Source: Leptospiraceae bacterium
GTDB taxonomy: Bacteria > Spirochaetota > Leptospiria > Leptospirales > Leptospiraceae
NCBI GenBank assembly: GCA_024233835.1
Contig: JACKPC010000001.1
Span: 1,669,442 to 1,733,441 of the forward strand
DNA length: 64,000 nucleotides
Direction: 5' to 3'
Part shown: positions 6,352 to 63,670 of the stretch, one piece after another
Layout of the letters: the number at the start of each line of letters is the position of its first letter
Numbering within the stretch: the stretch's first letter is position 1
Translations under genes and position numbers: made by a program
The notes under the pieces: generated by a model
What the model saw: only the letters and a program-made list of their open reading frames with translations
What the model was told of the DNA's origin: nothing
Database searches by the model: none

Positions 6352-7056
6352 TTAAGGAGTAACACTGAACGATATACCATCCAGATTAATATGAGTAGCA
6401 GTAGTATTAGCTTTTAAATCAAGATACACCCCATTACTATAAACATTCAGTTTATGAGAAAAACCATCAGTAGTTCCATGTGCCGGAACGGAAAAAGATA
6501 TTGCTTTAGGAGGTAAATATTCGGAAGGCAGGTTAATGATCATTTCATTATTAGCCAGGGCAGTGGATTTCGTTGCTAAACCCCTGAGGTAAACAATGTC
6601 TCCAATTTTTCGATACTGACAGCGTTGCCAGCCGCTATCTATAGTGCTGAAATTGCTGTAACCAGTTCCGAAGGTTGTTACATCTGTCCAGGGTACATTC
6701 CATGATATATTGCCGTTCACATCCAACTTTTGTGCTGGACTACTTGTCCCAATACCCACATTGCCACCGTTAAAAACTGCATCTGTTGTAGTAGTTCCCT
6801 TTGTCCAATTCGGGATACTTTCCAGCAAGGTTTTTATAGTATTGATACCGTTACCGATGTTATTCATCTCGGTGGCTGTCAGGCTGGAACCGGAAGTCCA
6901 GTCGGTTTTTACTGTGACGTTATTTACAGCGATTGCCAGAAGGGATACACTTAAGAATCCTGCTGTAAGTCCTGCACTGATTGCGAAGCTTTTTAAAAAA
7001 AGTCTTACACTAATGGCGAAGCTTTTTATAAACAAAAGTTTAAATCTGCGTTTCAT
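6352..7056 (-). CDS. Secreted tail-fibre-like repeat protein, paralog C (234 aa)
   Basis: N-terminal module nearly identical to the other paralogs. GNVGIGTSSPAQKLDVNGNISWNVPW motif. C-terminal module CQYRKIGDIVYLRGL... as in paralog A. Confidence 0.6.
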   Translation of the reverse strand: MKRRFKLLFIKSFAISVRLFLKSFAISAGLTAGFLSVSLLAIAVNNVTVKTDWTSGSSLTATEMNNIGNGINTIKTLLESIPNWTKGTTTTDAVFNGGNVGIGTSSPAQKLDVNGNISWNVPWTDVTTFGTGYSNFSTIDSGWQRCQYRKIGDIVYLRGLATKSTALANNEMIINLPSEYLPPKAISFSVPAHGTTDGFSHKLNVYSNGVYLDLKANTTATHINLDGISFSVTP

Positions 7057-9464: not shown

Positions 9465-9863
9465 ATGATTGCTTTTAGCTGGGTTACAGATATTGAAATT
9501 ACAAAAGAAAATGCTTATGAATTGATGCGAATCGCGAGAGCACGATGGAAGATAGAAAATGAAACCTTCAATACTCTAAAAAATCAGGGTTATCACTTTG
9601 AACATAATTATGGACATGGCAGTAAGGATTTGTCTAATAACTTTGCAACTCTTATGATACTTGCTTTTCTTGTAGATCAGATCCAACAATCAAGCTGTGC
9701 ATTATTCCGAAAAGCACTTGGGACTTTTCATGCAAAAAGATTGTTCTGGCAAAAGATAAGAAGCTTATTTGAAATATTTGAATTTTCATCTATGGAAGAG
9801 CTATTCCAGGCCATTGCTTATGGATTTAAAGCAAATATTTCTATAGGACAAAATTCATCATAG
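9465..9863 (+). CDS. DDE transposase, C-terminal part with the ARARWKIENETFNTLK motif (the YxxRWxIExxF signature of IS4/IS5-type transposases)
   Basis: 132 aa. It is separated from the N-terminal part by a stop and a frame change, so it is either inactivated or a sequencing frameshift. Confidence 0.65.
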   Translation: MIAFSWVTDIEITKENAYELMRIARARWKIENETFNTLKNQGYHFEHNYGHGSKDLSNNFATLMILAFLVDQIQQSSCALFRKALGTFHAKRLFWQKIRSLFEIFEFSSMEELFQAIAYGFKANISIGQNSS

Positions 9864-11102: not shown

Positions 11103-11870
11103 ATGGAAACAGAGTGTGTTGAACTGCAAATTCCCCGGCAGTATAGGCTTACAGATGAAGTAATCAAAATCCTGCAAATTCTAAACCATGACTTAATCAT
11201 AGATTTTGTAAAAGAAAATGGTGTGATTATAAAGCCAAAAACCCCGGAATTTGCAGGCCAGAAATACATCGATCTGAAGTTTCCTGAGGACTTTTTTCAT
11301 CCGGAAAACTTCGATGAACTTTATGAAGCCAATGAGCACCGGTTTCGGTTTGAACGGGTAGGGGAGACGATACGAATAAAAATGGGTTTTGGAAGTATAA
11401 TTGGTTTAATCACAGCAGCGATTGTTAGCTCCCTTTACATCTGGGCAAAAAAGACAAAGTCAGGAAGAGTGCGTTCAGATCAATCCGAATTTGAGTTTTA
11501 TAATGAAGAAACAGAAAGCCTTGAAAAAAGAATTCCCGATGTTTCTTATATTAGTTTTGAAAAGGTAAATGAAAAGGAACAAAAATCATGGGGCACAGGA
11601 AAGATTAAAGTTGCACCTACTCTGAGTATTGAAATAGTTTCTTCCAAATATGGCCTGAAGCCCGCTCTCTGGAAAATGCAACATGTATGGATGCAGTTCG
11701 GAACTGATATTGGAGTTGTAGTCTGTCCCTTTTCGAAAAAGCTGTACATTTTTGAGAAAGGTAAATCGAACCATATAGAACAAAGCATTTATCACAAGTT
11801 TACCCATACCCTCCTTCCCGACTATGAAGGTGATTTCAGCGAATATGTAGATGAAATAAGTGAATCCTGA
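11103..11870 (+). CDS. Membrane-anchored Uma2-family (PD-(D/E)XK-like) protein, paralog 1 (255 aa)
   Basis: N-terminal ~95 aa domain, one predicted TM helix (IIGLITAAIVSSLYIWA), and a C-terminal region with Uma2-like motifs (VSYISF...APTLSIEIVSSKYGLKPALWKMQ..MQFGTDIGVVVCPFSKKLYIF). Confidence 0.6.
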   Translation: METECVELQIPRQYRLTDEVIKILQILNHDLIIDFVKENGVIIKPKTPEFAGQKYIDLKFPEDFFHPENFDELYEANEHRFRFERVGETIRIKMGFGSIIGLITAAIVSSLYIWAKKTKSGRVRSDQSEFEFYNEETESLEKRIPDVSYISFEKVNEKEQKSWGTGKIKVAPTLSIEIVSSKYGLKPALWKMQHVWMQFGTDIGVVVCPFSKKLYIFEKGKSNHIEQSIYHKFTHTLLPDYEGDFSEYVDEISES

Positions 11871-11969: not shown

Positions 11970-12728
11970 ATGAACAGTGATTGTTTGGAGCTTTATCTTC
12001 CCCTTACATGCAGAGTGAGCGATGATGTCTTGCAGGCAATTCAACGATTAAACCATGACCTCATTATTGACCTGAGAAAAGAAAACGGTATCGGGATCCG
12101 GGTTACAGATGATTTATCCGAACAAAAATATATTGAGCTAAGATTTCCCGAAGGATTCATTCCTGCCGAAAACTTTGAGGAGCTTACAAGTAACAGAGAT
12201 AAGCTGTACTTTGAACAAAAAGGGGAGACGATTTTTATAAAAATGGGAACGATTTATACAATTGGTTTAATTACTATGGCAATCGGAGCCTCCCTGTACA
12301 TGTGGGCCAAAAAAAATAAAACCGGTAGAGTTTTACCCGAAAATTCTACCTATCAGTTGAGCGATTCTAAAACCGGTAAAACCGAAATCAGGATGGCAGA
12401 TATTTCCTATATCAGTTATGGGAAAGCTTCCGAGTCGGAGCAAAAAAAATGGGGGAAAAATTGTCCCATCGCTCCTACACTCAGCATTGAAATAGTTTCT
12501 TCCAAATATGGCCTGAAGCCCGCTCTCTGGAAAATGCAATATGTATGGATGCAGTTCGGAACTGATATTGGAGTTGTAGTCTGTCCCTTTTCGAAAAAGC
12601 TGTACATTTTTGAGAAAGGTAAATCGAACCATATAGAACAAAGCATTTATCACAAGTTTACCCATACCCTCCTTCCCGACTATGAAGGTGATTTCAGCGA
12701 ATATGTAGATGAAATAAGTGAATCCTGA
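11970..12728 (+). CDS. Membrane-anchored Uma2-family protein, paralog 2 (252 aa)
   Basis: Same architecture as paralog 1. The last ~245 nt are identical to paralog 1 apart from one substitution, while the 5' two-thirds are diverged. Confidence 0.6.
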   Translation: MNSDCLELYLPLTCRVSDDVLQAIQRLNHDLIIDLRKENGIGIRVTDDLSEQKYIELRFPEGFIPAENFEELTSNRDKLYFEQKGETIFIKMGTIYTIGLITMAIGASLYMWAKKNKTGRVLPENSTYQLSDSKTGKTEIRMADISYISYGKASESEQKKWGKNCPIAPTLSIEIVSSKYGLKPALWKMQYVWMQFGTDIGVVVCPFSKKLYIFEKGKSNHIEQSIYHKFTHTLLPDYEGDFSEYVDEISES

Positions 12729-41728: not shown

Positions 41729-43642
41729 TTATTCCTTCACCTGCATTTTAGTTCTCAAATAATATCTTTTTCTTTTTGCAAGACGCATGATTTTTTTTCC
41801 CATAGATTTTCTGAATCTATGGATTTTATTTTTATAAATTTCTTCTTCTGTCTTTAGGGATTTGATTATCTTCTTGAATAGTTCTGGTTTATATAAATAT
41901 TTTTTTAAATATCCTAAAGGTAAAAATACTGCTTCTTTTTTATTTCCTTCGCTTACCATCCATCCGTATGAATGTATCTTCCCATTTAAAGTATCGTAGA
42001 GTCCACCGGGGCTTACTAAAAGCCAGGAAGGGCTTGCAAAGGGAAACAGGGCAAATAATTCCCGACCATCCTGTATGCGATACCAGCGTAGAGAACCATC
42101 CTGAAAACTGAGTACGGCTAATTTCTCATTTCCGGAAATATTAATCGCAGAAGGGATAGAAGGTAAACTTGTTACCCATATAGGTTTTGCATTTGTGTCG
42201 AATTTTCTTAAATATACATCCGTACCCAGTAAAAAAAAAGTATCCAATCGGGAAATAGCCAGGACTTTCGAGACTTCCTTGGCCGACTCCAGGATCTCTC
42301 TATCATAAAAAATAGGATCACGACTATTCTTCCAATTACGAATATATAAGTCTTCGGATTCCACTTTGTTGAGATACAGGTCTGAAACTTCCGGAGGTTT
42401 TAAAAGAAGTTTCCTATCTAAAAGAGAAAAAGCAGCCATATGTTTTCTCTCTATTCCAAAATCAAATACAATTCGGGAAGCATCATAAGAAAGTAGGATT
42501 CTTTCTTCTTTTCCGGTAAAAGTTTTTTCAGTTCTCTGTGTTTTGGAAAATTGTATTCCGTTTTTGTAAAATAATTTGAATTCGGCTTTTTCATCGTATA
42601 TAAGAAGATTATCCTTTTCTGAAGATGCTATGTTCAGGGGTTTTGATGGAAACTTGTAAATTACTTTATGATAAGCATTTGGTGTTGGATAATAAAATAA
42701 CTCATATCCGAAATCTAAATTTTTATAGATAAGGTAGAATCCTCCAGAACTAAGTTTTACCGGAAACAAAACAGGTGTATAAGATGCACTCGGGGAAATA
42801 AATTTTCCGGAATGAATCGTATTCCAGGATAATAAATTGTTTTTGGGGATATACTCATAGCTAAATTGCTTATCATTCTCACAATGACTGAAAAGATACT
42901 CTGCTTTATTTGAAAAAGAATACCGACAATTTTTGCTTACTTCTTTTCGAGCAAATTTGATTCTAAAGTCCGGGCTATAGACCTTGTAAGAAGCATCTTC
43001 GGATAAAACATAATAATTACCATCATGACCTTTTTTAATTTCTTTTATGCCTGTGGTATAATTTTTATCCGCCATATAAACCTTATTTTCTTTGAGTGAA
43101 AAAACTCGAATGCCATATCCTCCTCCGAGTCCAACAAGGATAAAATTACCATCAAAAGAATAATTTACAGCTTTGATAGGAGCAGGTAGGTCTGAAAATT
43201 GGAATAGTAATTCTGCATTTTGAATAGAAAAAATGTAAAGGCTGAAAGAACCCTGCCAGCTATAACCGGTCCAACCTCCTATAGCTAATTTTCTTTTATC
43301 CGGAGAAAGGGCTACTGCATAGATCTTACCTTCTTTTTTTTCTGCACTGCGAGGGATATAATACTTTTGGTAGGGAAGAGTATTTTTTGTGTGATATATA
43401 ATAAAATTCTTACATTCGCCACAGGCCCAAAACAAAGAGGAAGACTCATCAAAACCAATAAAAGACTTATGAATTTCTCCTGTTTCTTCCTGCGTACTTA
43501 GCGTGATTGTATTTCCTTTTTCTAATGAAAAATTAATTCCTTCGGGTTTCGGAAAGAAATCAACTTCCGGTAGAGATGCACAGGAAATAAATAGGTCCAG
43601 GCAAAGTAAAGGAAGTAAAAATATTTTTTTATATTCAAACAA
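41729..43642 (-). CDS. Large lipoprotein, beta-propeller-like repeats
   Basis: 637 aa with a lipobox (LFISCAS). Beta-rich repeats. Immediately upstream of the Maf-like gene and in the same orientation. Confidence 0.4.
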   Translation of the reverse strand: MFEYKKIFLLPLLCLDLFISCASLPEVDFFPKPEGINFSLEKGNTITLSTQEETGEIHKSFIGFDESSSLFWACGECKNFIIYHTKNTLPYQKYYIPRSAEKKEGKIYAVALSPDKRKLAIGGWTGYSWQGSFSLYIFSIQNAELLFQFSDLPAPIKAVNYSFDGNFILVGLGGGYGIRVFSLKENKVYMADKNYTTGIKEIKKGHDGNYYVLSEDASYKVYSPDFRIKFARKEVSKNCRYSFSNKAEYLFSHCENDKQFSYEYIPKNNLLSWNTIHSGKFISPSASYTPVLFPVKLSSGGFYLIYKNLDFGYELFYYPTPNAYHKVIYKFPSKPLNIASSEKDNLLIYDEKAEFKLFYKNGIQFSKTQRTEKTFTGKEERILLSYDASRIVFDFGIERKHMAAFSLLDRKLLLKPPEVSDLYLNKVESEDLYIRNWKNSRDPIFYDREILESAKEVSKVLAISRLDTFFLLGTDVYLRKFDTNAKPIWVTSLPSIPSAINISGNEKLAVLSFQDGSLRWYRIQDGRELFALFPFASPSWLLVSPGGLYDTLNGKIHSYGWMVSEGNKKEAVFLPLGYLKKYLYKPELFKKIIKSLKTEEEIYKNKIHRFRKSMGKKIMRLAKRKRYYLRTKMQVKE

Positions 43643-44192
43643 GTAACATCTTCTTTTGTAAGTTCTCTTTCACTTCTTTTCCTCTTAATGCCTCTACCAG
43701 TTCCAGGGCAAATTCCAGGGCAGTTGCCGGTCCTCTGGATGTGAAAATATTTCCATCACGAACAACTCTTTCTGCTTTTATAGAGATGGAAGTATTCTCT
43801 GTAGATTCAAGCTGGCCCGGATAAGAAGTTGCATTCCTTCCTTCCAAAATTCCGGCTTTTTCCAGGATTATTGGAGCTGCACAGATAGCAGCAGTGATTT
43901 TCCCCTTATGAAACATTTTTCTTGTCAGCTCTATGATTCTTTCATCATCCCGCAGGTGATGGGCTCCGGGTAAGCCGCCCGGAAAAACAATCATACTAAA
44001 TTCATCCTCAGGACAGGATAAATCGGAGAAAAGTACATCGGTATAAAAACAGATTCCATGAGAACCACAAACTGTTTGTGAATTCACTCCTGCGGTAACT
44101 ACTTCAATATCAGCTCTTCTTAAAACGTCAATAATGCTTACCGCTTCGATCTCTTCAAAACCCTCAGCCAAGGGTACCAGGACTTCTGACAT
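43635..44192 (-). CDS. DJ-1/PfpI-family protein
   Basis: 185 aa with the nucleophile elbow AAICAAP and overall ThiJ/DJ-1 organisation. Confidence 0.8.
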   Translation of the reverse strand: MSEVLVPLAEGFEEIEAVSIIDVLRRADIEVVTAGVNSQTVCGSHGICFYTDVLFSDLSCPEDEFSMIVFPGGLPGAHHLRDDERIIELTRKMFHKGKITAAICAAPIILEKAGILEGRNATSYPGQLESTENTSISIKAERVVRDGNIFTSRGPATALEFALELVEALRGKEVKENLQKKMLLV

Positions 44193-44347
44193 ATAAACCC
44201 CTCTTCTTTATTCAGGATCATTATCAAAGAATCATGCAGAGCTGGCAAGAAAATCTTGTTTTATTTTTTTTTAGAAAGATCTTCTTTTTTTTCTTGAATT
44301 CTTATTTCTAAATTCACTATAAAAAAAGTCATACTGAATAAATAACT

Positions 44348-45298
44348 ATGTTGAACTCCAGGTTAAACTTTTCCAGAATTACTGTTGAGCTTATTTCTAT
44401 GTATGAATGCAGGCTTCCCGAATTTACAGGCTCTCTTCTCAGGGGTTCTTTCGGTCATGCCCTTAAGAAAGTCTTTTGTGAACAGTATTCGGATAAGTGT
44501 TCTGAGTGCAGTTCCTCTTCGGATTGTGGTTACTTTCAGATTTTTGAGAGTCAGGATGACAATTTTCGAAAGATGGGCTATCATTATAAACCGCATCCCT
44601 ATATCATTACACCCTGCCATAAGAGCTATTATAAGGTGGGTGATAAGCTGCAATTCAAAATGACTTTTTTTGGAGATTTCATTCGTTTCTTTCCCTACCT
44701 TTCCAAAACTTTTGAGGAGATGGGAAAAGTAGGTTTTGGAAAAGATAGAAATACTTTTTCTTTAAGCTCTATTCGAGATGATATAAGTGGAAAAGAGCTT
44801 TATTCAGAAAAAGATAAGATGGCTGAGATTAAAACCCTTTCCATACAGGAATATGCCCGAAAAGAGTTTGATAGGATTTTTAGAGGCTCAAATACAGGAA
44901 CCGGAGATTTTGACATGGTTTTTTTAACACCCGGACGTTTTGCTGAGAATGGAAAAGTGTTAAAAAGTATAAACGGAAAGCTCCTGTTTGATAGTATCAA
45001 TAGGCGATATTCTACCATGCACTCTTTTTATGGAGAATTTGATAGAAAAGATATCTCCGGTGAGGAAGAGGTTCAGATAACTGTGAATGATTGTTCCTAT
45101 AAAAAATGGAACCGGTATTCTAACCGACAGGAAAGAAAAGTTCAACAAAGTGGTATTCTGGGTACTTACACCCTGAAAAATATCAGTCCTCGCACTTTCC
45201 AAATATTAAAAGCAATGGAGATTCTGCATATTGGAAAGAATACAAGTTTCGGTCTTGGAAAAATTGAAATTCGAATGGATGACTGTAAGAATTCCTAA
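44348..45298 (+). CDS. Cas6-like RAMP-superfamily protein (orphan; no CRISPR array in the window)
   Basis: 316 aa. N-terminus ITVELIS...RLPEFTGSLLRGSFGHAL. A C-terminal glycine-rich loop HIGKNTSFGLGKIEI matches the GxGxxxxxGxG RAMP loop. Also a Cys cluster CEQYSDKCSECSSSSDC. Confidence 0.4.
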   Translation: MLNSRLNFSRITVELISMYECRLPEFTGSLLRGSFGHALKKVFCEQYSDKCSECSSSSDCGYFQIFESQDDNFRKMGYHYKPHPYIITPCHKSYYKVGDKLQFKMTFFGDFIRFFPYLSKTFEEMGKVGFGKDRNTFSLSSIRDDISGKELYSEKDKMAEIKTLSIQEYARKEFDRIFRGSNTGTGDFDMVFLTPGRFAENGKVLKSINGKLLFDSINRRYSTMHSFYGEFDRKDISGEEEVQITVNDCSYKKWNRYSNRQERKVQQSGILGTYTLKNISPRTFQILKAMEILHIGKNTSFGLGKIEIRMDDCKNS

Positions 45299-47190
45299 TT
45301 AGCCACCAGGTTTTTAAATTCTTCTTCTTCTCGAATACTTATAAAATCTTCATCTTCTTTGGCTTTCTCCCTTAATTCAGGATGAAAGCTGAGAGCTCTT
45401 TGTAAATGCCTGAGAGAATTTTCTTTCGCTCCACTTAGGCAGTAGTAGCAGGCAAGGTTGTATTCGGTTTGTACTAAAGAGGGAATATCCTGTTCCTTAC
45501 CCTCTGAAAGCAAGGATAAGGCTCTTTCTGAGCATTCAATGGCTCTTTCCAGATCTTTTACAGCCTTATAACCCGTTGCCAGATTTGCCCAGCCCTGGGC
45601 ATAAGTAGGTTTTAACTCTACGGATTTTTTATAGGCCCGCAGGGCTTCCTCATATTTTTTCTCTCTTTTGAAGAGGTTTCCGTAATTTGCCCAGCTCTGG
45701 TGTTGTTCCGGATTGATTTTTAAAGAAGTTAAAAAGGCATCTAAAGCTTTCTCTATTTCTTCCAGTTCTGTATAACAAATACCCAGATTATTCCAGGCTC
45801 CTGCATTTTTAGGATTTATATAAATAGCATTACGATAGGAATCAACAGCTTCCCGGTAACGTTTTTCTCTACGAAAGTTATCTCCGATTCGATACCATTC
45901 TAACTCGCTATAAGGTGGGTTTAATTTGGCTCTCCGGCAATAGGTACGGATGGTTTCTGTTTTTTCTCCTATAGGAGGTCTGGCTATACGCAGACTGGTT
46001 TCTACTTTTTCGGCATTTCTTTTACCTTTCAGGCAGTATTCTTCTATTACTTCCAGGGGATATTGTTCAAAATCTACTATTTCTATTTTCTTAATCAGGG
46101 ACTTTAATATAGGATGAATATCCAGATTCTGGTGTTTAACCTTATAGAGTAAAACCAGAAGGGCATTTTTTCCGATTACCCAGAGAGGTTCCATTTCCAG
46201 CATTTTTAAAAAAGAATCCCAATCTCTATCATTTAGGTAGTAGTGAGCGAGAGTCCTGCTTGCATACTTGCGAATTTCGTAGTCTTTATCTAATAAACAG
46301 GTATTTAATATACCTATTAACTCTTTATAAAGAATATGTTTCTTTTCAAATATTCTTTCGAGATAAGCGAGGGTTCCACTTCTTACGATGTGGGGAGATT
46401 TTAAAAGGAAGTCCTCCAGCTTTTTGGTTTCTTTAGATAAAAGATAATGACCGGTTAAGGACTCAGCAACTGACCAGGAAACAGCTTCTTGATTTTGGAG
46501 TAAATCTTCCAGACGATTTACCAGCTCGGAAGGAAGCAAAACACGATTTGAATAGTAGGAAAGTGTTTCACAGACCCTGCGAATTAGTTCCTCTTCGTTT
46601 GATTCCAGTATTTTTATCATATACTGGAAGAGAAGTTCGATAAATTCTTCTTTTAGTCGAATGCTGCGCAGAGCCCAGAGAGATCCTTTTAGAACATGTA
46701 AATTTTCATTGGATAGAAGCTTTCGAGCGACAAACTCAAAATTCCCAATATCACATTGATAGGCAGTTACGAGATTTGCAGCTTCATAGGCCACATCCGG
46801 ATTGCTATCCCCCAGTAACCATATAATTTCCGGAATAGCATCCAGAATATCATAGCCCCGACGGAAAAGGTTTGTGAAGGTATAGATCGAATAGAGTCTT
46901 ACATATTCATATGGATCGGAAAGAGACTTGGTTAACCAGGGAATGAATATATGAATATCGGTAGTGCTGACAATCAAGGATAGGGAACGAACCAGACATT
47001 TTCGGACCACTTCATCGGTATGAAAGAGCAGGTTTTGCATTTCTTTAAAAAGCGGTTTTAAATCATAGCTGGCTTCTGCATAGGTTTCAATTCTATGAGC
47101 CGCATCTAAGATTTGCTTCTTATCCGAAGAATAAAGCTCTTTTCTGATTCTCCTCAGTTCTTCTGTTGATATTTCTTTGAGAATATCCAT
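45295..47190 (-). CDS. HEAT-repeat (N-terminal) and TPR-repeat (C-terminal) protein
   Basis: 631 aa. The C-terminus has three or four TPR units (AWNNLGICYTELEEIEKALDAF...SWANYGNL...GWANLATGY). The N-terminus has HEAT/PBS-lyase-like repeats. Confidence 0.6.
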   Translation of the reverse strand: MDILKEISTEELRRIRKELYSSDKKQILDAAHRIETYAEASYDLKPLFKEMQNLLFHTDEVVRKCLVRSLSLIVSTTDIHIFIPWLTKSLSDPYEYVRLYSIYTFTNLFRRGYDILDAIPEIIWLLGDSNPDVAYEAANLVTAYQCDIGNFEFVARKLLSNENLHVLKGSLWALRSIRLKEEFIELLFQYMIKILESNEEELIRRVCETLSYYSNRVLLPSELVNRLEDLLQNQEAVSWSVAESLTGHYLLSKETKKLEDFLLKSPHIVRSGTLAYLERIFEKKHILYKELIGILNTCLLDKDYEIRKYASRTLAHYYLNDRDWDSFLKMLEMEPLWVIGKNALLVLLYKVKHQNLDIHPILKSLIKKIEIVDFEQYPLEVIEEYCLKGKRNAEKVETSLRIARPPIGEKTETIRTYCRRAKLNPPYSELEWYRIGDNFRREKRYREAVDSYRNAIYINPKNAGAWNNLGICYTELEEIEKALDAFLTSLKINPEQHQSWANYGNLFKREKKYEEALRAYKKSVELKPTYAQGWANLATGYKAVKDLERAIECSERALSLLSEGKEQDIPSLVQTEYNLACYYCLSGAKENSLRHLQRALSFHPELREKAKEDEDFISIREEEEFKNLVAN

Positions 47191-53067: not shown

Positions 53068-55428
53068 TCAAGGTCCGTAGCGAACACAACGGACATTGTT
53101 GAGATAATAGGTCTTAGTGTAGTTGTCGACAGAGCCATTGAGGAAGTAGACGTACCATGCGGAGAGGTCAGAAGAAATGAGGCCACTCGCCGACCAATAG
53201 CCGGACAAAATTGTATTAGGAAAGAAAATTCCATTAATTTTTGCTCCTGTATCTTCGTTCTCTCCGGATAAATCTATCAATGTCTTTAATTCTTCAATTG
53301 TAGGTACCCGCCAACCTGTTTTCCCGGCAAAACCACCTGTTGGATTTGTATTCAAATCATTACAGGAGTTATATGCTGTACTGGAACCATCGTTCAGAAA
53401 TGTACCCAGAATTCCCGTATTGTTTCCTCCATTGCAGTCATTATCCATCTCATTGCAATAATAATATGTTCCTGCGTTTCCATCACAAGCATTTGTATTA
53501 TTATTCCATGTCTGTCCCTGACTACACTTCTTCCATATCAGTCCTGTGCTTTTGTCATAGATTGTGCCATCGCCATTATCAACATACCAGGTCTTTGCTT
53601 CCATATAAGGATCACAGGATATTACAATATTGGATACATTAGAAGTTATAGTTCCGCTTGCATTAAGAACAGTACAGGTCTGATCGGTAGGGTTTGTTTT
53701 TACTGTTACTGCATAGAAAGTATTGTAATTGATATTAGTTGCAAAGGTAAAGTTACCATTGGAATTTAAAGTCAATTCGTTTCCACTGTTCAGTTGCAAT
53801 ACAATGCTTTTAGAACTTCCCATACCCGATAATTCCCCTCCTATAGTATAATTTGTGGTTACACAACTTACGCTGACATTGGAGACATTGGCTGTAGCTG
53901 TTCCGATTCCATTGGAAAGTGTACAGGTCTGACCGGCAGGCTGGGTTTTGATGGTTACGTTATACAAATACGCTACTGATTTAGAAAAGGTAAAGTTGCC
54001 ATCGGCATTTATGCTTAGCTCATCTCCTCCGTTGTTCTGTAGTACCAACATTCCACTGAGTCCTGTTACTGTGCCTCCGATGGTAAAACTCTGGCAACTC
54101 ACGCTTACATTTGTAACATTAGTAATAGCAGTTCCACTAGCATTGCTAACTGTACATGTCTGCCCGGTGGGCTGGGTTTTCACTGTTACACTATAATCAC
54201 CCGCAACATCTGTGGAAAATTTAAAACTACCATTAGAAGTGATAGTTATATCATCTCCACCATTCTTTTGTAATACAAGAGTACCGCTCAATCCGCTTAC
54301 TGTTCCTGCCACAGTATAGGTAACAAGTCTGCCTGTGGTAAAACTGTAGGTTTTATTTTCGCCCAGAGAGTTTCCTGCCAGATCCTTTATTGTGCCAAGA
54401 ATAGTGATGCGGTGCTTCGTACTGGTGCGAAAGCTTTCATTCACTCGAAAGATTAGAGTCTTTTCTTCTCCGCTGACAGTTCCCGGAACATTTTTACTAT
54501 TTTCATTTTTATCAATCTCTACTATAGATAAGGATTGAGTATTCAAAGTAGTTATATCAATTGCTTCTGAGAAAATTAAAGTTATAAGAGTATTATTCGA
54601 CACATTCGTTGAGCCATCTGTCGGAATCACAGTTTCCACAACAGGTGGAGAGTTGTCTAAAATATCGTTGGTAGTAAAACTTATGTTTGTTGCTGTCGCA
54701 AGAGAATTACCGGCAAGGTCTTTGATTCCTGTTTGAATGAAAATTGTATAATTTGTCCAGGAGGAAAAGATGGCGGATGGTTTAAGCTGCACGACACTGC
54801 CGATAAACTCTAATTCTTTTTCTAATATAGTGTCTCCCTGTTTTAAGATAATAGTTTCATTACTCACCGTATCCGGATCTAAAGCCTCATTGAATACCAA
54901 TTGGATAGATGTATTTCTAACTATCTCAGAGGAAGAATTTGCCGGATAGCTGGTTTTTATAGAAGGAGATTCGTTATCTATATTATTATTGGTGGTGAAA
55001 TATATGAGTTCTTCGACCGGATTTTCCTGTGTATTACCCTCTAAATCCCGGACATTGTTCATAAATTTGACTGTGTGTTTTGTGTTTGCCGTATAGTATT
55101 CGGAAGGTGTAAACTTCAGGGTATTTTTAGAAATGCTAACAGTTCCTTGAATTTCTTTACCACCTGCATCATAGACCTAGAGGGTAGTTTCATTGGCAGA
55201 AGTGGAAATAAGGTTTTCATCATACACAATTAAAAAGGAGCGATTGCGGGCTATGTCGGTCTCGTAATTATAAGGTGTGGTATAGTTTACCTCGGGTGGA
55301 GTTTTATCCTTTTGTAACCAGAGATAATGCAAAAACAAACCGGGTGAGGGTTCAAAAGGATTATTGAAGTTTATCCCCGGAGTACAGGAAGAAAGAAAAA
55401 TAAGAAGTAGAATTACCAACCATTTCAT
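53068..55428 (-). pseudogene. Lipoprotein with SbsA-type Ig-like domains and a C-terminal DUF1566 (Lcl-C) domain, split by one in-frame TAG at 55174-55176
   Basis: The 55177..55428 ORF (signal peptide + lipobox, homologous to the N-terminus of 57998..60079) and the 53068..55062 ORF are in the same frame, separated by a single TAG. C-terminus KTWYVDN.DGTIYDKSTGLIW..CSQGQTW...WRVPT..EL..L...YWS (DUF1566). Confidence 0.6.
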
Positions 55429-55526: not shown

Positions 55527-56285
55527 ATGAAACCGCCGGAAGAAAAAGAGACCTATCACCTAATTTTCCCCGAACAATACCCGCTACCTCCTCGCATTCA
55601 GGAACTTTCGAGGCTCAATACCGAACTAAGTTTATCGTATCAAGAAAATACATTGATTATCCGGGAAGCTCCCCCCTACGCCTTTCGAGACTATGAAAAC
55701 TTTCTTTTACGCCTTCCGGGTTTTACTGAAGAACTATTCTTTCAACTCGAAGAACTGAACGATGAAACACATTTTGAATTTGATGATAACGAGGAGGTCA
55801 TTGTTAAAATGTCTACTTTTGCATTAATAAGTTTATTAACAGGTGCTGTTTTAACTTCCCTTTTTATCTGGGCAAAGTCCAGAAAGAGCGGCAGGGTGTA
55901 CACAGAAGACGGAGGCTATATGCTCGAAAGCCCGAACGGAAAACATCTTCATAGAATGGCGGATATTTCTTATATAGCCTACAGTAAAGCTTCCCCGGAA
56001 GAACAGGCTAGCTGGTATTCCCGCATTCCCATAGCTCCGAGTCTTGCGGTTGAAGTTGTATCGGCTAAAAGAGGTTTAAAACCGGCACTGAAAAAAATGA
56101 AAGATATCTGGATGGCAAACGGCACTGAACTCGGGCTTGTTATCTGTCCTTTCAGTAAGAAAATCTATATATTTGAAATATCTAAAGAATCCTATACCGA
56201 ACAGAGTATATTCGAGGATTTCACCCATCCCGACCTCCCCGGCTACAAAGAAAACTTCAGCGAATATGTAGAAAAGATAAAATAG
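55527..56285 (+). CDS. Membrane-anchored Uma2-family (PD-(D/E)XK-like) protein, paralog 3
   Basis: Same architecture as 11103/11970: N-terminal domain, TM helix (FALISLLTGAVLTSLFIWA), and C-terminal ADISYIAY...APSLAVEVVSAKRGLKPALKKM...GTELGLVICPFSKKIYIFE. Confidence 0.6.
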   Translation: MKPPEEKETYHLIFPEQYPLPPRIQELSRLNTELSLSYQENTLIIREAPPYAFRDYENFLLRLPGFTEELFFQLEELNDETHFEFDDNEEVIVKMSTFALISLLTGAVLTSLFIWAKSRKSGRVYTEDGGYMLESPNGKHLHRMADISYIAYSKASPEEQASWYSRIPIAPSLAVEVVSAKRGLKPALKKMKDIWMANGTELGLVICPFSKKIYIFEISKESYTEQSIFEDFTHPDLPGYKENFSEYVEKIK

Positions 56286-56709: not shown

Positions 56710-57888
56710 TCAAATAGTTTCTAATTCTTTTGTTTTAATAATTGAATCAATAATTATCTTCTTTTTTGCTTGGAATTTTTCAAAAAGAACTTTCTGTTTT
56801 TCATTCAACTCGGTACCATATTTTGCTTCTATTAATATTCTATCTTCAGTAAGAAAATCCAGTTCTACTTCTTCCTGTAAATAATATATTTTACTTTTAT
56901 TTCTTATTAGAAGATAAATATAATTTTCAAAATAACTTCCTAAGTCTCTTTCTCCATGGAATAAAAACTTTATACCGAGATCACTTGCATAAACCTTCTT
57001 TGGACTCAATATTTTTTCATTTGTTTTTCCCCATCTTGATACAAGATGAATAAGGTATGTTGCTTCAAAATAAGACAGATAGCGTCTCGAAGTATCAGGA
57101 GAAATTTTTAATATTTTTGCTATTTTATTTATACTGATCTGTTTTCCACTTCTTTCCATCAACAAAGAAAAGTAGTCACGCATAACGTCACTATTTTTTA
57201 AACCGTAAAAAGCCGTTATGTCTTTTTGAATAATATCTTCTACAAGTCCCATCAAATATTGTCTTTCGGGATAATTAATATTTTCTGGCATTCCTCCTAT
57301 TTTAATGTAATCTTTGAAATAGGAATCTAAAAGAGAAGCATCTCTTTTTTTGACTGAGATTCCTTTAAAATCCAGGAATTCAAAAAAGTCCAGGGGTTGT
57401 ACTTCAAATACTGTAGTTCTACCTGTTAAATTTGCTCTTTTATCTTTAAGAAGAGAACTTGAAGAAGACGTAGCAATGATTTTTAAATTTTCTTTATCAA
57501 ATAAGTTTTTAAGCTGAATTTCATATTCATTTTTATATGTGATTTCATCAAAAAAAAGATAAGACTTTTCTTCAGATTTAATTTTGCATATTTTTCTATA
57601 TAAAGTGAGAATCTCGTGGATTGAGTTATTCTTAAATAAATAATCATCCATACTGATATAAAAAATATTTTTAGGTTTAATTCCTTTTTTTAAAAGATGG
57701 TGGATCATCAATTTCATGAGACTTGTTTTTCCCACCCGCCTGAGACCTGTAAGAAAAAGGATTCTATTTTCATTCAACCAGAATGGGAACTTTTCCTTAA
57801 GGCTTTTCCTATTCCACAATTCTATCTTAAAATCATTTTCCCACCACGGATTATAAGAATAAAGCGATTCTTCCATTTGAACAACCAT
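56710..57888 (-). CDS. AAA+ ATPase, AAA_14 + DUF4143 family
   Basis: 392 aa with Walker A GLRRVGKTSL, Walker B FFDEI and a DUF4143 C-terminus. Very AT-rich. Confidence 0.85.
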   Translation of the reverse strand: MVVQMEESLYSYNPWWENDFKIELWNRKSLKEKFPFWLNENRILFLTGLRRVGKTSLMKLMIHHLLKKGIKPKNIFYISMDDYLFKNNSIHEILTLYRKICKIKSEEKSYLFFDEITYKNEYEIQLKNLFDKENLKIIATSSSSSLLKDKRANLTGRTTVFEVQPLDFFEFLDFKGISVKKRDASLLDSYFKDYIKIGGMPENINYPERQYLMGLVEDIIQKDITAFYGLKNSDVMRDYFSLLMERSGKQISINKIAKILKISPDTSRRYLSYFEATYLIHLVSRWGKTNEKILSPKKVYASDLGIKFLFHGERDLGSYFENYIYLLIRNKSKIYYLQEEVELDFLTEDRILIEAKYGTELNEKQKVLFEKFQAKKKIIIDSIIKTKELETI

Positions 57889-57997: not shown

Positions 57998-60079
57998 CTA
58001 CGGTCCGGATACACAACGTACATAGCCGTCAAAGGTCTTAGAGACGCTGTGGACATAGCCAGTAACGAAACCGACGAGCAACGCGCTCGTAGTATTAGGC
58101 GCATAGGTAGTAGAACTCCAATAAAAGCCAGCAATGGTATTTGGAAATAAATTTCCATTGTTCAAAGCCCCTGTTGAAGAATAATTTTGTCCTGATAGAT
58201 CCAATAGAGTCTCCAACTCAGTAACAGAAGGAACTCTCCAATTGGTTCTTCCGGCAAATCCAGCAGGGGGATTAGAATTCAAATTATTGCATTGTGTGTA
58301 AGCTTCGCTTGTCCCGGTTCCATTTAAAGTATAGGGAGGATTTCCCGATGCATCAGAGTTACAACTATTATTATTAACGTCACAATATCGATATTTTACT
58401 GCAGTTCCATCACAACTATTTGTGTTTTCATTCCATGTCTGTCCCTGGCTACACTTTAGCCAGATTAGTCCCGTACTTTTATCATAGATTGTTCCATCTT
58501 TATTATCCACATACCAGGTCTTGGATTCCATATAGGGATTACATGACACCGTAATATTAGAGACGTTAGCAGTTGCTGTTCCTGTTGCATTGAGAATGGT
58601 ACATGTTTGAGTGGAAGGGTTTGTTTTTACAGTTACTGCATATGAATTATTATAATTGATGTTTGTTCCAAAAGTAAAACTTCCATTGGAATTTAAAGTT
58701 AAATCACTACCACTATTCAGTTGTAAAACAATATTTTTTCCACTCCCCATTCCTGAAAGATTCCCGCTGATAGGAAAAGCCGATGTAACACAACTCACGC
58801 TTATATTGCTCACATTTGCAGAGGCTGTACCATTGCCATTGCTAACTGTACATGTCTGTCCCGTGGGTTGTGTTTTTGCAGTCACACTATAATAACTTGA
58901 TACACCGGTGGTAAATGTAAGACTTCCATCGGATGTAAGAGTCAATTCATCTCCACCGTTATTTTGTAATATTAGAGTTCCACTCAATCCGCTGACAGTT
59001 CCACCAACCGTATAGGTGACAAGTCTGCCTGTGGTAAAATTATAAGTTTTATTGGTCCCCATGGCATTGCCGGACAGGTCTTTTATCGTACCCATAAGGG
59101 TGATTTGGTGTTTGGTACTCGTTCGAAAACTTTCATTCACACGAAAGATAAGACTCCTGCCTTCTCCACTTACAGCACCCGGTACTTTTTTGATACTTCC
59201 ATCTTCAAATATTTCTTCTATATAAAAAGAAGAGGTATTCAAAGTATTCACATCTATAGCCTCGGAAAAATTTACCGTTATAAGAGTATTATTCGACACA
59301 TTCGTTGAACCATCCGCCGGAATCACCGTTTCTATTACCGGGGGAGTTCTGTCCGAGGTATCTGTTGTGGTAAAACTGATTGTTTGTTCAGACGCCAGAG
59401 CATTGCCGGACAGATCCTTTATCCCGGTGGTAATCAATAATGCATATGTAGTGTTGGGTTGAAACCCAACAACAGGTTGAAACCCAACACCGGGCTTAGG
59501 AAGTTGTATCTGTACCACAGAGCCATAAGAGGAAATCTCTGTCTCAATGACAGTGTCTCCCTGTTTCAGTATAAAAGTATCCGTACTCGCATTCAGAGGA
59601 GTGCTGGTTTTTAAAATAGGAGGCTCTGTGTCTATATCATTACCCGTGGTAAAGTAAAAAACATCTTCCTTGAACACAGGCTGCACATTCCCCGCTAAAT
59701 CTTTCACGCTCTTTTGCAGCTTTACCGTATGTAAGCTATTCGCTGCATAGTATTCCGTCGGTATGAATTTTAGAGTATTCCTATTTACTTCTAATTTGCC
59801 CGGAACCTGAGTCGTAGCATGAAAAACCTGTAAAGTGTTTTCCTTCACAGACTCAGAAAGAATGGGTTCATCATATACTATTAATATAGAACGATTCCGG
59901 GAATAGTTAGTTTCGTAATTATAAGGTGTTGTATAGTTTACCTCGGGTGGAGTTTTATCCTTTTGTAACCAGAGATAATGCAAAAACAAACCGGGTGAGG
60001 GTTCAAAAGGATTATTAAAGTTTATCCCCGGAGCGCAGGAGGTAAAGAAAATTAGAAGTAGGTATACCAACCGTTTCAT
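57998..60079 (-). CDS. Lipoprotein with SbsA-type Ig-like domains and a C-terminal DUF1566 (Lcl-C) domain (intact, 693 aa)
   Basis: Lipobox LIFFTSCAPG. Ig-like PPVIETVIPADGSTNVSNNTLITVNFSEAID. C-terminus KTWYVDNKDGTIYDKSTGLIWLKCSQGQTW...WRVPSVTELETLLDL..YWSS. Confidence 0.7.
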   Translation of the reverse strand: MKRLVYLLLIFFTSCAPGINFNNPFEPSPGLFLHYLWLQKDKTPPEVNYTTPYNYETNYSRNRSILIVYDEPILSESVKENTLQVFHATTQVPGKLEVNRNTLKFIPTEYYAANSLHTVKLQKSVKDLAGNVQPVFKEDVFYFTTGNDIDTEPPILKTSTPLNASTDTFILKQGDTVIETEISSYGSVVQIQLPKPGVGFQPVVGFQPNTTYALLITTGIKDLSGNALASEQTISFTTTDTSDRTPPVIETVIPADGSTNVSNNTLITVNFSEAIDVNTLNTSSFYIEEIFEDGSIKKVPGAVSGEGRSLIFRVNESFRTSTKHQITLMGTIKDLSGNAMGTNKTYNFTTGRLVTYTVGGTVSGLSGTLILQNNGGDELTLTSDGSLTFTTGVSSYYSVTAKTQPTGQTCTVSNGNGTASANVSNISVSCVTSAFPISGNLSGMGSGKNIVLQLNSGSDLTLNSNGSFTFGTNINYNNSYAVTVKTNPSTQTCTILNATGTATANVSNITVSCNPYMESKTWYVDNKDGTIYDKSTGLIWLKCSQGQTWNENTNSCDGTAVKYRYCDVNNNSCNSDASGNPPYTLNGTGTSEAYTQCNNLNSNPPAGFAGRTNWRVPSVTELETLLDLSGQNYSSTGALNNGNLFPNTIAGFYWSSTTYAPNTTSALLVGFVTGYVHSVSKTFDGYVRCVSGP

Positions 60080-60208: not shown

Positions 60209-60231
60209 GGAAAAATTAAATGGGAACTGAG

Positions 60232-60990
60232 ATGAAACCGCCGGAAGAAAAAGAGACCTATCACCTAATTTTCCCCGAACAATACCCGCTGCCTCCTCGC
60301 ATTCAGGAACTTTCGAGGCTCAATACCGAACTAAGTTTATCGTATCAAGAAAATACATTGATTATCCGGGAAGCTCCCCCCTACGCCTTTCGAGACTATG
60401 AAAATTTTCTTTTACGCCTTCCGGGTTTTACTGAAGAACTATTCTTTCAACTCGAAGAACTGAACGATGAAACACATTTTGAATTTGATGATAAAGAGGA
60501 GGTCATTGTTAAAATGTCTACTTTTGCATTAATAAGTTTATTAACAGGTGCTGTTTTAACTTCCCTTTTTATCTGGGCAAAGTCCAGAAAGAGCGGCAGG
60601 GTATACACAGAAGACGGAGGCTATATGCTCGAAAGCCCGGACGGAAAACATCTTCATAGAATGGCGGATATTTCTTATATAGCCTACAGTAAAGCTTCAC
60701 AGGAAGAACAGGCTAGCTGGTATTCCCGCATTCCCATAGCTCCGAGTCTTGCGGTTGAAATTGTCTCTGCTAAAAGAGGTTTAAAACCGGCACTGAAAAA
60801 AATGAAAGATATCTGGATGGCAAACGGCACTGAACTCGGGTTTGTTATCTGTCCCTTTAGTAAGAAAATCTATATATTTGAAATATCTAAAGAATCCTAT
60901 ACCGAACAGAGTATATTCGAGGATTTCACCCATCCCGACCTCCCCGGCTACAAAGAAAACTTCAGTGAATATGCAAAAAAGATAAAGTAG
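60232..60990 (+). CDS. Membrane-anchored Uma2-family protein, paralog 4 (near-identical to 55527..56285)
   Basis: Only about five amino-acid differences from paralog 3. The start is taken at MKPPEEKE. Confidence 0.6.
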   Translation: MKPPEEKETYHLIFPEQYPLPPRIQELSRLNTELSLSYQENTLIIREAPPYAFRDYENFLLRLPGFTEELFFQLEELNDETHFEFDDKEEVIVKMSTFALISLLTGAVLTSLFIWAKSRKSGRVYTEDGGYMLESPDGKHLHRMADISYIAYSKASQEEQASWYSRIPIAPSLAVEIVSAKRGLKPALKKMKDIWMANGTELGFVICPFSKKIYIFEISKESYTEQSIFEDFTHPDLPGYKENFSEYAKKIK

Positions 60991-61373: not shown

Positions 61374-62897
61374 ATGGCACGACCTCGTTATTTCAATACC
61401 TCCGGTCCGAATATTCCGGAGGAGCATTATACCCTGTTCCGTCCTGCTTTAATGGCAAAAGGTCGTGATATGGTTGAGAGAAGCCGTTATTTCACCATCT
61501 GGGCACCAAGACAAACCGGAAAAAGCACCTATTTTCGTCTTCTGGCAAAGGAGCTGGAAAAAGATGATTATAAAGTCTGTCATATTAATTTTGAGAACTA
61601 TATGAATGCCAGTCTGGAGTCTTTTTTAAAAACATTTGTTCAGGAAATAAACCAAAATTGGGGAACAAATATATCTTTAACGGAGATTTCAGATATAATC
61701 CAACAGTTAAAGGGGATTGCAGATAAAAAACTTGTTCTGATTATTGATGAAGTCGAAGGAATTAATTCTGAATTTTTTAATGAATTTTTACATTCCATTC
61801 GTAATGCTTATCATTCTCGTAATAACCATTCCTTAAAATCCGTAATCCTTGTCGGAGTTTCGAATATCACAGGAATCATACAGGACAATGCCAGTCCTTT
61901 TAACATTGCTGATGATTTGAGTTTATCATATTTTTCTAATGAAGAAACCGTTGAACTTTTAGAGCAACATGAAACAGAAACCGGTCAAATTTTCTCCGAT
62001 GAAGTAAAACAAAAAATAATCGGTATGACAGCCAACCAGCCGGGTCTTGTGAATGGCTTTGCCTATAAACTGGTTGAGCTTTGTCCGGGCAAAAAAGAAA
62101 TCACTTTAGACGACTATTTTACAATTGAAGAATGGTATCTTACAGAAGCGATTGATAAGAATGTGAGTAATATAATCAATAAATCTAAAAAATATAGAAA
62201 GTTTGTTGAAGAGCTTTTGTTTACCGAAACTAAAATCCCCTTCAAAATCGATAGACCTGCAATATTAGAATTATATATAAACGGAATTATTAAAAAAGAC
62301 GATACCGGCAATATTGAGTTCTGGGTTCCTCTTTATAAAAACAGGTTGTTAAATGCTTTTTTTCCCTATTCGAATGGGGAAAGTGAACGTATTGCCCGGA
62401 ACATGCTCTCAACAGCTTATCTTAACGAAGATGGAAAAATTAACTTTAAGAAATTAATCGATAGCTATAAAGAACACATCTCTCTTCGTAGCTTTCGGCC
62501 TTTCCGGGAAAAAGATGAAGAGGGAAAATTTGTTTCCATTCCGGAAGCTGCGATGATCTATAGCTTTGAAACCTTTATCAGTATCTTCATCCGTGAACTC
62601 GATGGTAAAATTTATCGTGAAGGATTTGTATCTCTCGGCAACACCGATATGATTATCAATGTTGAAGGCCATGAGTATCTGTTGGAATTAAAAAAATACT
62701 ACAGCCCCTCCTATTTTAAAAAAGGTAAAAAACAACTCGCCTACTACTGCAAACGAGCAGGATTAACGGAAGGTCATTATATCATTTATGTAGACAACCG
62801 GACAAAACCGGAGTTCGTTTCGGAAGAACCGGAAGTTATTGAGAGTATTACTATATACTCTTATCTTATCTGGTATGATGAAGAGAAAGACTTTTGA
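61374..62897 (+). CDS. AAA-type ATPase fused to a C-terminal PD-(D/E)XK nuclease-like domain
   Basis: 507 aa. N-terminal RYFNTSGP...YFTIWAPRQTGKSTYF (Walker A) and LIIDEVE (Walker B). C-terminal GNTDMIINVEGHEYLLELKKY (D...E.K core). Confidence 0.6.
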   Translation: MARPRYFNTSGPNIPEEHYTLFRPALMAKGRDMVERSRYFTIWAPRQTGKSTYFRLLAKELEKDDYKVCHINFENYMNASLESFLKTFVQEINQNWGTNISLTEISDIIQQLKGIADKKLVLIIDEVEGINSEFFNEFLHSIRNAYHSRNNHSLKSVILVGVSNITGIIQDNASPFNIADDLSLSYFSNEETVELLEQHETETGQIFSDEVKQKIIGMTANQPGLVNGFAYKLVELCPGKKEITLDDYFTIEEWYLTEAIDKNVSNIINKSKKYRKFVEELLFTETKIPFKIDRPAILELYINGIIKKDDTGNIEFWVPLYKNRLLNAFFPYSNGESERIARNMLSTAYLNEDGKINFKKLIDSYKEHISLRSFRPFREKDEEGKFVSIPEAAMIYSFETFISIFIRELDGKIYREGFVSLGNTDMIINVEGHEYLLELKKYYSPSYFKKGKKQLAYYCKRAGLTEGHYIIYVDNRTKPEFVSEEPEVIESITIYSYLIWYDEEKDF

Positions 62898-62965: not shown

Positions 62966-63670
62966 TCACTCAAACAATTTTTCTACATTTTGCCAGGGCA
63001 TGATATTTACTTCATTTTGTATTTTTTCTTCATCCCCTCCATAGATAAGAAATTTGTTTGTTATCTGTAATTCTGTTTTAGAATAATACTTTAAGTTTTT
63101 AAAGAAATCAGAAGTTATCGTTGAAGCTGATTTTACTTCACATAAATCTACGAAAATCCCTTTATCGATAAGGAAGTCTATTTCATGACCTTTTTTATCT
63201 CGTAGGAAATATACATCTTCTTTATTACCCCTGTTGTATTGGGTTTTTAAGATTTCAGAAAAAACAAGAGTTTCAAAAATAGCTCCTTTTAAAGGATGAG
63301 AAAAAATTTGTTCAAAACTTTTAATACCCAGAAGATAACAGACAAGGCCGGTATCTAAAAAAAATAATTTTGGTGCTTTTATTAACCTCTTATTTATATT
63401 TTTAAAATAAGGGCGAATTAGCTTGATAAGAAAGCTGGCTTCCAGAACATGAATCCATGATTTAATTGTGTTATGATTTACACCACAGGATGTGCCTATC
63501 TCATTCATATTGAGTAATTGGCCTGTCCTTCCGGCAAGAGATTGGCTTACATTCTGCATCAGTTCAAATTGGCAAACATCCGGGTTTTCCAGACTTACAT
63601 ATTTTTTGTGAGGAAAAAGGATTTTGCATAATGTCGTTTTACCGGACTGCCTGGGGCCGGTTATGGTCAA
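62966..63670 (-). CDS. DUF4143-family ATPase, short form (234 aa, TTG start; upstream in-frame homology is interrupted by stops)
   Basis: Walker A GPRQSGKTTL at residue 5 and a DUF4143-like C-terminus (VYFLRDKKGHEIDFLIDKG). The upstream in-frame sequence still reads ...PKNCKQYPI before reaching stop codons. Confidence 0.55.
   Translation of the reverse strand: MTITGPRQSGKTTLCKILFPHKKYVSLENPDVCQFELMQNVSQSLAGRTGQLLNMNEIGTSCGVNHNTIKSWIHVLEASFLIKLIRPYFKNINKRLIKAPKLFFLDTGLVCYLLGIKSFEQIFSHPLKGAIFETLVFSEILKTQYNRGNKEDVYFLRDKKGHEIDFLIDKGIFVDLCEVKSASTITSDFFKNLKYYSKTELQITNKFLIYGGDEEKIQNEVNIMPWQNVEKLFE

Follow-up and report, generated by a model that had tools for sequence, protein, structure and literature searches.

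A lone cas6 gene in a Leptospiraceae genome that also carries a type III-B CRISPR-Cas system

A cas6 gene typically lies beside other cas genes of a CRISPR system, but such adjacency does not define the family, as TTHA0078 of Thermus thermophilus HB8 illustrates (PMC3902920). The product of that gene, TtCas6A (PDB 4c8y, 4c8z and 4c97), is encoded away from every CRISPR-cas locus of its genome; the same genome has an operon-embedded paralogue, TtCas6B, and the two enzymes both cleave the same repeats, leaving an 8-nucleotide 5' handle (PMC3902920). Type III systems are described as relying on a Cas6 that does not form part of the effector complex (PMC5965381), which makes action in trans mechanistically easy. 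Here we describe a comparable gene from a Leptospiraceae bacterium, located at 44348..45298 on the + strand of a 64-kb stretch of contig JACKPC010000001.1; this whole stretch is referred to below as the window, and the gene and its product as the query. Like the gene for TtCas6A, the query lies outside any CRISPR-cas locus, being without a cas neighbor throughout the 64 kb, and like the T. thermophilus genome, its genome holds a second Cas6 embedded in an operon.

The coding sequence (ATG start, stop codon included) specifies 316 amino acids, and the protein is a genuine Cas6 endoribonuclease paralogue of the PF27225 plus PF10040 family. It matches the Pfam model CRISPR_Cas6 (PF10040) with 48 bits against a gathering cut-off of 25 (expectation value (E) 2.1e-12), and the PADLOC Cas6 profile PDLC01477 with an E of 2e-72, residues 5-309 aligning to positions 2-295 of the 296 in the profile; several further PADLOC Cas6 profiles are also significant. 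A contig from the same organism matches the window at 100% identity, and an identical protein in GenBank, from a Leptospiraceae metagenome-assembled genome (MAG), is annotated as 'CRISPR system precrRNA processing endoribonuclease RAMP protein Cas6' (RAMP, repeat-associated mysterious protein). The domains listed for this identical protein are PF27225 (AF_1859_N) and PF10040, the first of them from precomputed annotation only.

Two other profiles did not reach their thresholds. The equivalog model TIGR01877 (cas_cas6, COG1583-type) gave 21.7 bits against a trusted cut-off of 58.65 and aligned to the C-terminal part only, and the query is therefore placed in the other Cas6 branch, COG5551, which was counted among the 'Cas6 proteins proper' in the 2011 unification of Cas proteins (PMC3150331). 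The RAMPs model PF03787, which describes Cas7/Cmr-type proteins, scored 13.3 bits where its cut-off is 22.1 (E 0.12), and membership in the RAMP superfamily follows from the predicted Cas6 fold, not from this model. The original prediction, a Cas6-like RAMP protein, is borne out by PF10040, the PADLOC profile, the fold and the glycine-rich loop.

An AlphaFold2 model built from 82 homologues (predicted local distance difference test score (pLDDT) 93.1; predicted template modeling score (pTM) 0.91) agrees with the anticipated architecture, in which a pair of ferredoxin-like domains is combined with a G-rich loop. Two beta-alpha-beta domains of the ferredoxin-like/RNA recognition motif (RRM) type are present, together with a long beta-hairpin at residues 243-279, with strands at 243-258 and 263-279; the loop, residues 294-305, lies between the last helix (281-293) and the last strand (306-310). 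Each of the 37 best hits of a Foldseek search against the PDB is a Cas6 structure, with a probability of 1.00 (6dd5, 4ill, 4c9d, 6fjw and others, with E values down to 1e-14), led by the Cas6 domain of the Marinomonas Cas6-RT-Cas1 protein and followed by Sulfolobus Cas6 and Thermus TtCas6B. In a sequence-profile search of the PDB, only three solved Cas6 structures match (6fjw, 7kft and 6dd5), over the C-terminal domain only, and the G-rich loop of the query aligns to theirs; the N-terminal, Cys-bearing domain has no sequence-detectable solved relative in that search.

All of the motifs originally quoted are present, namely ITVEL (residues 11-15), RLPEFTGSLLRGSFGHAL (22-39) and HIGKNTSFGLGKIEI (294-308). 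The last of these includes the glycine-rich loop itself (residues 294-305, HIGKNTSFGLGK; 45227..45262, +), a Cas6/RAMP hallmark identified in both alignment and model, and G296, K297, F301, G302, L303 and G304 are invariant in the 82-sequence alignment, which spans many phyla. Predicted helix alpha-1 (residues 28-43) contains the putative active-site segment LRGSFGHALK (residues 31-40; 44438..44467, +), where R32 is found in 82 of 82 aligned family members, K40 in 77 and H37 in 66, the other 16 members having no His at that position. R32 and H37 are candidate catalytic residues, because TtCas6A has R22 and H37 in this region (PMC3902920). The turn of the predicted long beta-hairpin (residues 252-272, KKWNRYSNRQERKVQQSGILG; 45101..45163, +) combines the family-invariant residues R256, S258, R260, G269 and G272 with the clade-specific residues K253, N255, Q266 and S268, and by analogy with solved Cas6-RNA complexes is likely to be the element that binds an RNA stem-loop (PMC3902920). 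The protein is predicted to cleave CRISPR repeat RNA in a sequence-specific manner.

The original prediction also drew attention to a Cys cluster of the form CxnCxxCx5C. The pattern is indeed there, as C44-x6-C51-x2-C54-x5-C60 in the N-terminal domain (codons at 44477..44527, +), but it is no special feature of this gene. C44, C54 and C60 occur in 82 of 82 family members and C51 in 81, and the query has all four; this near-invariance rules out the cluster as the mark of an unusual gene, and we regard it instead as a defining trait of the PF27225/PF10040 Cas6 subfamily. Most plausibly the four Cys form a structural zinc site. A literature search for zinc- or cysteine-containing Cas6 proteins gave nothing relevant.

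Within the window, the gene is alone. No CRISPR-like array was found there by Tandem Repeats Finder, a direct-repeat search or a k-mer chain detector, an Rfam scan at gathering thresholds returned no matches, and a Pfam search of essentially all window open reading frames (ORFs) of at least 100 amino acids, a few of which have no Pfam match, revealed no recognizable cas gene besides cas6. To this extent the description of the gene as an orphan stands, but it does not extend to the genome. A Cas6 paralogue (P0013), 41-42% identical to the query (P0001), shares with it both the MAG assembly, GCA_020440905.1, and the sequencing run, SRR12358676. For P0001, for P0013 and for P0121, which is encoded at the P0013 locus, the records give the longest contig as 2,049,248 bases, and given this shared figure, the query and the P0013 locus apparently lie on one contig and one chromosome.

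The gene for P0013 opens a type III-B (Cmr) operon. The operon starts with Cas6, Cas10/Cmr2 and a RAMP protein in the Cmr1 position, followed by an inserted AAA_21/AbiEii pair; its middle part encodes Cmr3, a CARF-nucleotidyltransferase fusion (P0121, 564 amino acids) and then HEPN/MNT pairs; and it ends with Cmr4, Cmr5 and Cmr6, followed by further MNT/HepT genes and a Card1-type CARF nuclease. The host cmr locus (L102:1652-14611 and L103:11002-15753) also holds UPF0175 and MJ1673 among its accessory and defense genes, and the cas6 gene at the operon head has a GC content at third codon positions (GC3) of 0.47, versus a GC content of 0.33 for the cmr locus.

A CRISPR array is found about 4.8 kb downstream of cmr6, at L103:15763-15950 (ENA ERZ27248703, k141_895268). 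It consists of three copies of a 37-nucleotide repeat, GTGGGAATTAGTCTGGCTCGTTTGAGAGCATTGCGAC, spaced at 75-76 nucleotides, with two spacers and a degenerate last copy, and the contig that bears it ends about 180 nucleotides past the array. The search for arrays elsewhere in the genome, applied to the contig of the cmr locus, thus turned up a three-repeat array in the same assembly, contrary to an orphan state. The host genome has a complete type III-B effector with a Cas6 of its own, as well as one or more arrays, and the query is lone in its window yet not an orphan at the level of the genome. The end of the Logan cmr contig (L102) was considered as a possible break within an array and ruled out; the array occurs solely on the ENA contig, which is the longer of the two. 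A 22-nucleotide perfect palindrome, AGGGTATGCTTAAGCATACCCT (L102:14663-14684), located there 73 nucleotides after cmr6, is not a CRISPR repeat; it could reflect faulty assembly or represent a terminator hairpin.

To place the query in an evolutionary context, we compared it with its closest relatives, P0002, P0003 and P0004 (54-57% identity), near which no cas gene or array was found within the readable flanks. In a neighbor-joining tree, the query and these three proteins form one clade, nested among the type III-linked Cas6 proteins of Leptospiraceae. P0002 and P0003 share synteny, with an ABC-F ATPase gene 2-3 bp downstream of cas6, then DUF192, ECH and SpoIIE genes. The linkage to ABC-F (domain order ABC_tran-ABC_tran_Xtn-ABC_tran, same strand; L013:7693-10469 and L020:7664-10511) is absent in the window and in L012. 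P0004 lies between OmpA and Peptidase_S24 genes, beside a ribosomal protein operon. The start of P0003 was probably called late, as an upstream in-frame ATG (L013:7660-7692) gives the family-like N-terminus MLKSKLKFS.... The sequencing run of P0003, SRR28370466, also contains the Csm-linked P0005. A scan of GTDB species representatives, which do not include the host genome, found no member of this stand-alone clade (best match 46% identity), nor did a scan of JGI metagenomes with a clade-specific alignment (best match 33% identity).

A cas6 gene without cas neighbors may be the residue of a lost system, as was originally suggested: the last gene of a deleted cas operon, drifting to loss. The absence of nearby cas genes and of an array in the window is what such a history would leave, and a plausible route to solo copies is visible in a Leptospirales MAG (JAAFIR010000008.1; L017:10001-17000), where an intact cas6 gene (P0011) adjoins fragmented csm genes, with products annotated as Csm1_B (96 amino acids), Cas10 palm (453 amino acids) and Csm2 (76 amino acids). 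This locus looks like a decaying type III-A operon. The query, however, has an intact, full-length ORF. Outside the stand-alone clade, 56 positions show at least 85% conservation across the family, and the query retains 54 of them, among which are the four Cys, R32, H37 and the G-rich loop (the two changes are V142I and G268S); the stand-alone clade as a whole retains 51 of these 56. The four orthologues are 54-60% identical, with a proportion of synonymous differences (pS) of at least 0.76 and a proportion of nonsynonymous differences (pN) of only about 0.3; as synonymous sites are saturated, a ratio of the two substitution rates (dN/dS) is not computable and the contrast between pS and pN is qualitative only. 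The composition of the gene is also equilibrated with that of the host, its GC content being 36.7% versus 37.0% for the window and its GC3 likewise matching that of its neighbors. The same match, together with the lack of an adjacent integrase or transposase, rules out a recent horizontal insertion. On this comparative evidence, the stand-alone gene is one that has long been maintained under purifying selection, neither a decaying relic nor a fresh insertion; decay is thus largely refuted, and we hold it to be very improbable.

The repeats associated with these systems have a common design. Those of the host, of L022 (the closest Leptospiraceae species representative) and of L027 have a 3' half in common, and all three fold to one arrangement of a 4-bp stem, a 6-nucleotide loop and an 8-nucleotide tail. 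The stems vary by compensatory changes (GCUC/GAGC, CCUC/GAGG and CUAC/GUAG), and the tails read AUUGCGAC or AUUGAGAC, the former in the host genome. Thermodynamically these hairpins are unremarkable, with z-scores of 0.05 to -2.0 that are too small to stand out. Even so, the geometry of hairpin plus tail is that of a classic Cas6 substrate yielding an 8-nucleotide 5' handle.

We consider it probable that the query is a functional Cas6 that processes CRISPR RNA precursors (pre-crRNAs) in trans, alongside the cmr-linked Cas6 or backing it up. The gene would be transcribed alone, and its product, acting as a metal-independent endoribonuclease, would bind CRISPR repeat RNA made elsewhere on the chromosome, for which the 37-nucleotide host repeat, GUGGGAAUUAGUCUGGCUCGUUUGAGAGCAUUGCGAC, is the candidate. 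Cleavage would occur at the 3' base of the small repeat hairpin, leaving the 8-nucleotide 5' handle AUUGCGAC on the crRNAs, which would then be loaded into the host type III-B (Cmr) complex. In doing so, the query would work beside, or stand in for, the Cas6 with which the cmr operon begins, and it may also serve further arrays elsewhere.

Several points weigh against this proposal. The catalytic activity of the query is one that we infer. What connects the two loci is MAG binning, the shared run and the identical figure reported for the longest contig, and the sequence that was read amounts to about 64 kb plus about 29 kb, in a genome that measures at least 2 Mb. The host array, as far as it is visible, is tiny, with its two spacers and degenerate last repeat, and the host cmr operon already encodes a Cas6, so that a second enzyme is not obviously needed. 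The stand-alone copy and its paralogue P0013 are also only 41-42% identical, and twelve positions are fixed in the stand-alone clade and rare elsewhere, clustering at residues 199-217 and 253-268; the second cluster falls on the predicted RNA-binding hairpin, which leaves room for a shift of substrate, and could mean that the query recognizes something other than the repeat of its paralogue.

The same divergence and the same two clusters are what a specialized Cas6 of shifted specificity would show, one that serves a different class of repeats, such as those of an orphan array or a second CRISPR-Cas system, and is not redundant with the cmr-linked enzyme. Type III-B systems commonly borrow the arrays of other systems. 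No second array or cas system was found, however, in the roughly 64 kb plus 29 kb read, and the larger Leptospiraceae clade in which the stand-alone clade nests has, among its known repeats, a single 3' design. We therefore regard a specialization of this kind as unlikely, and processing of the host repeat by the query in trans, beside or in support of the cmr-linked enzyme, as the better account.

A substrate might also be sought outside CRISPR systems, as the original prediction proposed. Copies of the host, L022 and L027 repeats were found neither in the window nor at the other stand-alone loci when up to 12 mismatches in 37 were allowed, positive controls being recovered in the same search. 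The 21-nucleotide core shared by the repeats (up to 5 mismatches) gave a single match in the window and these loci together, at 41619 of the window on the - strand, inside a coding region and at chance level, about 1.5 being found in shuffled sequence. No k-mer shared by the upstream or downstream flanks of the four stand-alone genes rose above shuffled controls. These searches gave no positive evidence for a non-CRISPR RNA substrate, in the form of either a repeat-like site or a shared flanking motif.

These results bear on the possibility that the enzyme was exapted, and that it now has a regulatory role unconnected with CRISPR immunity, binding or cleaving a hairpin in an mRNA or small RNA of the host. 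The gene has been kept in four lineages and three different neighborhoods, the base composition of the query is native, and the ABC-F gene lying 2-3 bp downstream in two of the lineages suggests co-transcription with a translation-related factor; in some lineages the stand-alone Cas6 may be co-expressed with the ABC-F translation factor. Set against this are the lack of a repeat-like site, a shared flank motif or an Rfam match, the absence of the ABC-F linkage from the window and L012, and the fact that the host keeps a type III-B system needing Cas6-made crRNAs. An exapted role is in our judgment quite improbable, and equally so the recruitment of the clade of four sequences, with its diverged hairpin (K253, N255, Q266 and S268), to a non-CRISPR host RNA. 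If true, the stand-alone clade would represent a CRISPR nuclease domesticated for host gene regulation.

In the wider family, linkage to type III genes prevails. Among Leptospiraceae relatives at 42-48% identity, P0005 lies at a Csm-type locus, P0009 at a Cmr locus and P0012 at a III-D-like locus with Csx19, and P0011, beside the fragmented csm genes described above, falls in the same range of identity. In most of 80 loci from species representatives, type III genes, an array or both occur within 10 kb, and only 2 of the 25 loci with nearly full flanks have neither, by a seed-based search of the flanks for type III genes that would miss other cas types. A Caldithrix sp. MAG (DYKB01) encodes two family members, one (L073) adjoining a repeat array and the other (L093) without a type III gene or array within 10 kb, and is a possible second example of a linked copy plus a solo copy.

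As originally described, the query lies between a DJ-1 gene and a convergent HEAT/TPR gene. The DJ-1/PfpI gene (43635..44192, -) is divergent and separated from cas6 by an AT-rich intergenic region of 155 nucleotides (44193..44347), and the Adaptin_N(HEAT)/TPR gene (45295..47190, -) overlaps the cas6 stop by 4 nucleotides. Because it is flanked by a divergent gene upstream and a convergent gene downstream, cas6 appears to form its own transcription unit; the intergenic region presumably holds the promoters, with cas6 transcribed separately. A consensus scan of 44193..44347 found no promoter-like site above chance, and promoter and terminator matches around cas6 were likewise at chance level. 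The sequence TTGAAT-18 nucleotides-TATAAA at about 44294-44323 is a conceivable, unverified promoter.

The Pfam content of the window includes the housekeeping genes obg, proB/proA-like, nadD-like, lspA, argS, recO and cinA, as well as a HipA toxin-antitoxin pair, Uma2 nucleases and AAA_14/DUF4143 ATPases. The toxin-antitoxin pair (681-2268, -) comprises a HipA-like kinase toxin (426 amino acids) and an HTH_3 antitoxin-like gene (107 amino acids). Four AAA_14/DUF4143 ATPase genes or fragments (3430-3762, -; 4181-5371, +; 56710-57888, -; 62966-63670, -) and an AAA_35/AAA_22 STAND-like ATPase gene (61374-62897, +) give both ends of the window an unusual density of ATPase genes. Two paralogous ORFs without Pfam matches (230 amino acids at 2582-3274, -, and 234 amino acids at 6352-7056, -) flank AAA_14/DUF4143 ATPase genes, each with a two-copy tandem duplication of 33 nucleotides (3185-3250 and 6967-7032). 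Four paralogous Uma2-family genes, encoding putative restriction endonuclease-like proteins, are all on the + strand (11103-11870, 11970-12728, 55527-56285 and 60220-60990), two of them in tandem and the other two each behind one of two large paralogues with Big_5 Ig-like repeats and a C-terminal Lcl_C domain (53068-55062, -, and 57998-60079, -), which are probably surface proteins. A DDE transposase fragment is located at 9465-9863 (+).

Of the described systems, the operon-linked Cas6 proteins of Leptospiraceae with the same two Pfam domains and the Cys4 cluster (P0013, P0009, P0005 and P0012) are close to the query in sequence, sharing with it the motifs PHPY, TPxR, WxRYSNRQ and GKxTSFGLGK. 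They are encoded by the first genes of Cmr, Csm or III-D-like operons, whereas the stand-alone clade has no cas neighbor in its readable flanks and differs from them by the 12 signature substitutions. The best structural match is the Cas6 domain of the Marinomonas mediterranea Cas6-RT-Cas1 protein (6dd5, 7kft and 7kfu), with an E of 1e-14 and a query template modeling score (TMq) of 0.57-0.60, and this domain is also one of only three significant profile matches in the PDB (7.7e-05). What aligns is the C-terminal domain with the beta-hairpin and the G-rich loop, the N-terminal Cys region remaining unaligned by sequence; identity is about 14%. Unlike the free-standing query, the Marinomonas domain is joined in one protein with a reverse transcriptase and Cas1 and takes part in spacer acquisition from RNA.

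In genomic arrangement, the closest parallel is TtCas6A. It has the two-domain Cas6 fold in common with the query (Foldseek E about 1e-9, template modeling (TM) score 0.47-0.63), and its catalytic His lies in the region of helix alpha-1, where the query has the candidate residue H37. The Cas6 subfamily of TtCas6A is a different one, identity being about 14-15% when the structures are aligned, with no sequence match to the query by phmmer or by the family profile against the PDB, and it appears to be without the four-Cys cluster; its activity has been demonstrated, that of the query is predicted. The cluster is a family-wide and apparently uncharacterized trait of the PF27225/PF10040 Cas6 subfamily, and a stand-alone state selected across four diverged lineages prompts one to ask what use a second, trans-acting Cas6 has, although neither the cluster nor the retention of this state alters the understanding of CRISPR biology. 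A Cas6 that seemed an orphan in a 64-kb view thus comes from a genome in which both an array and a full type III-B system are present, a further case of the TtCas6A type in which a solo Cas6 coexists with an operon-embedded paralogue, found here in spirochaetes and already known as an arrangement from other bacteria.

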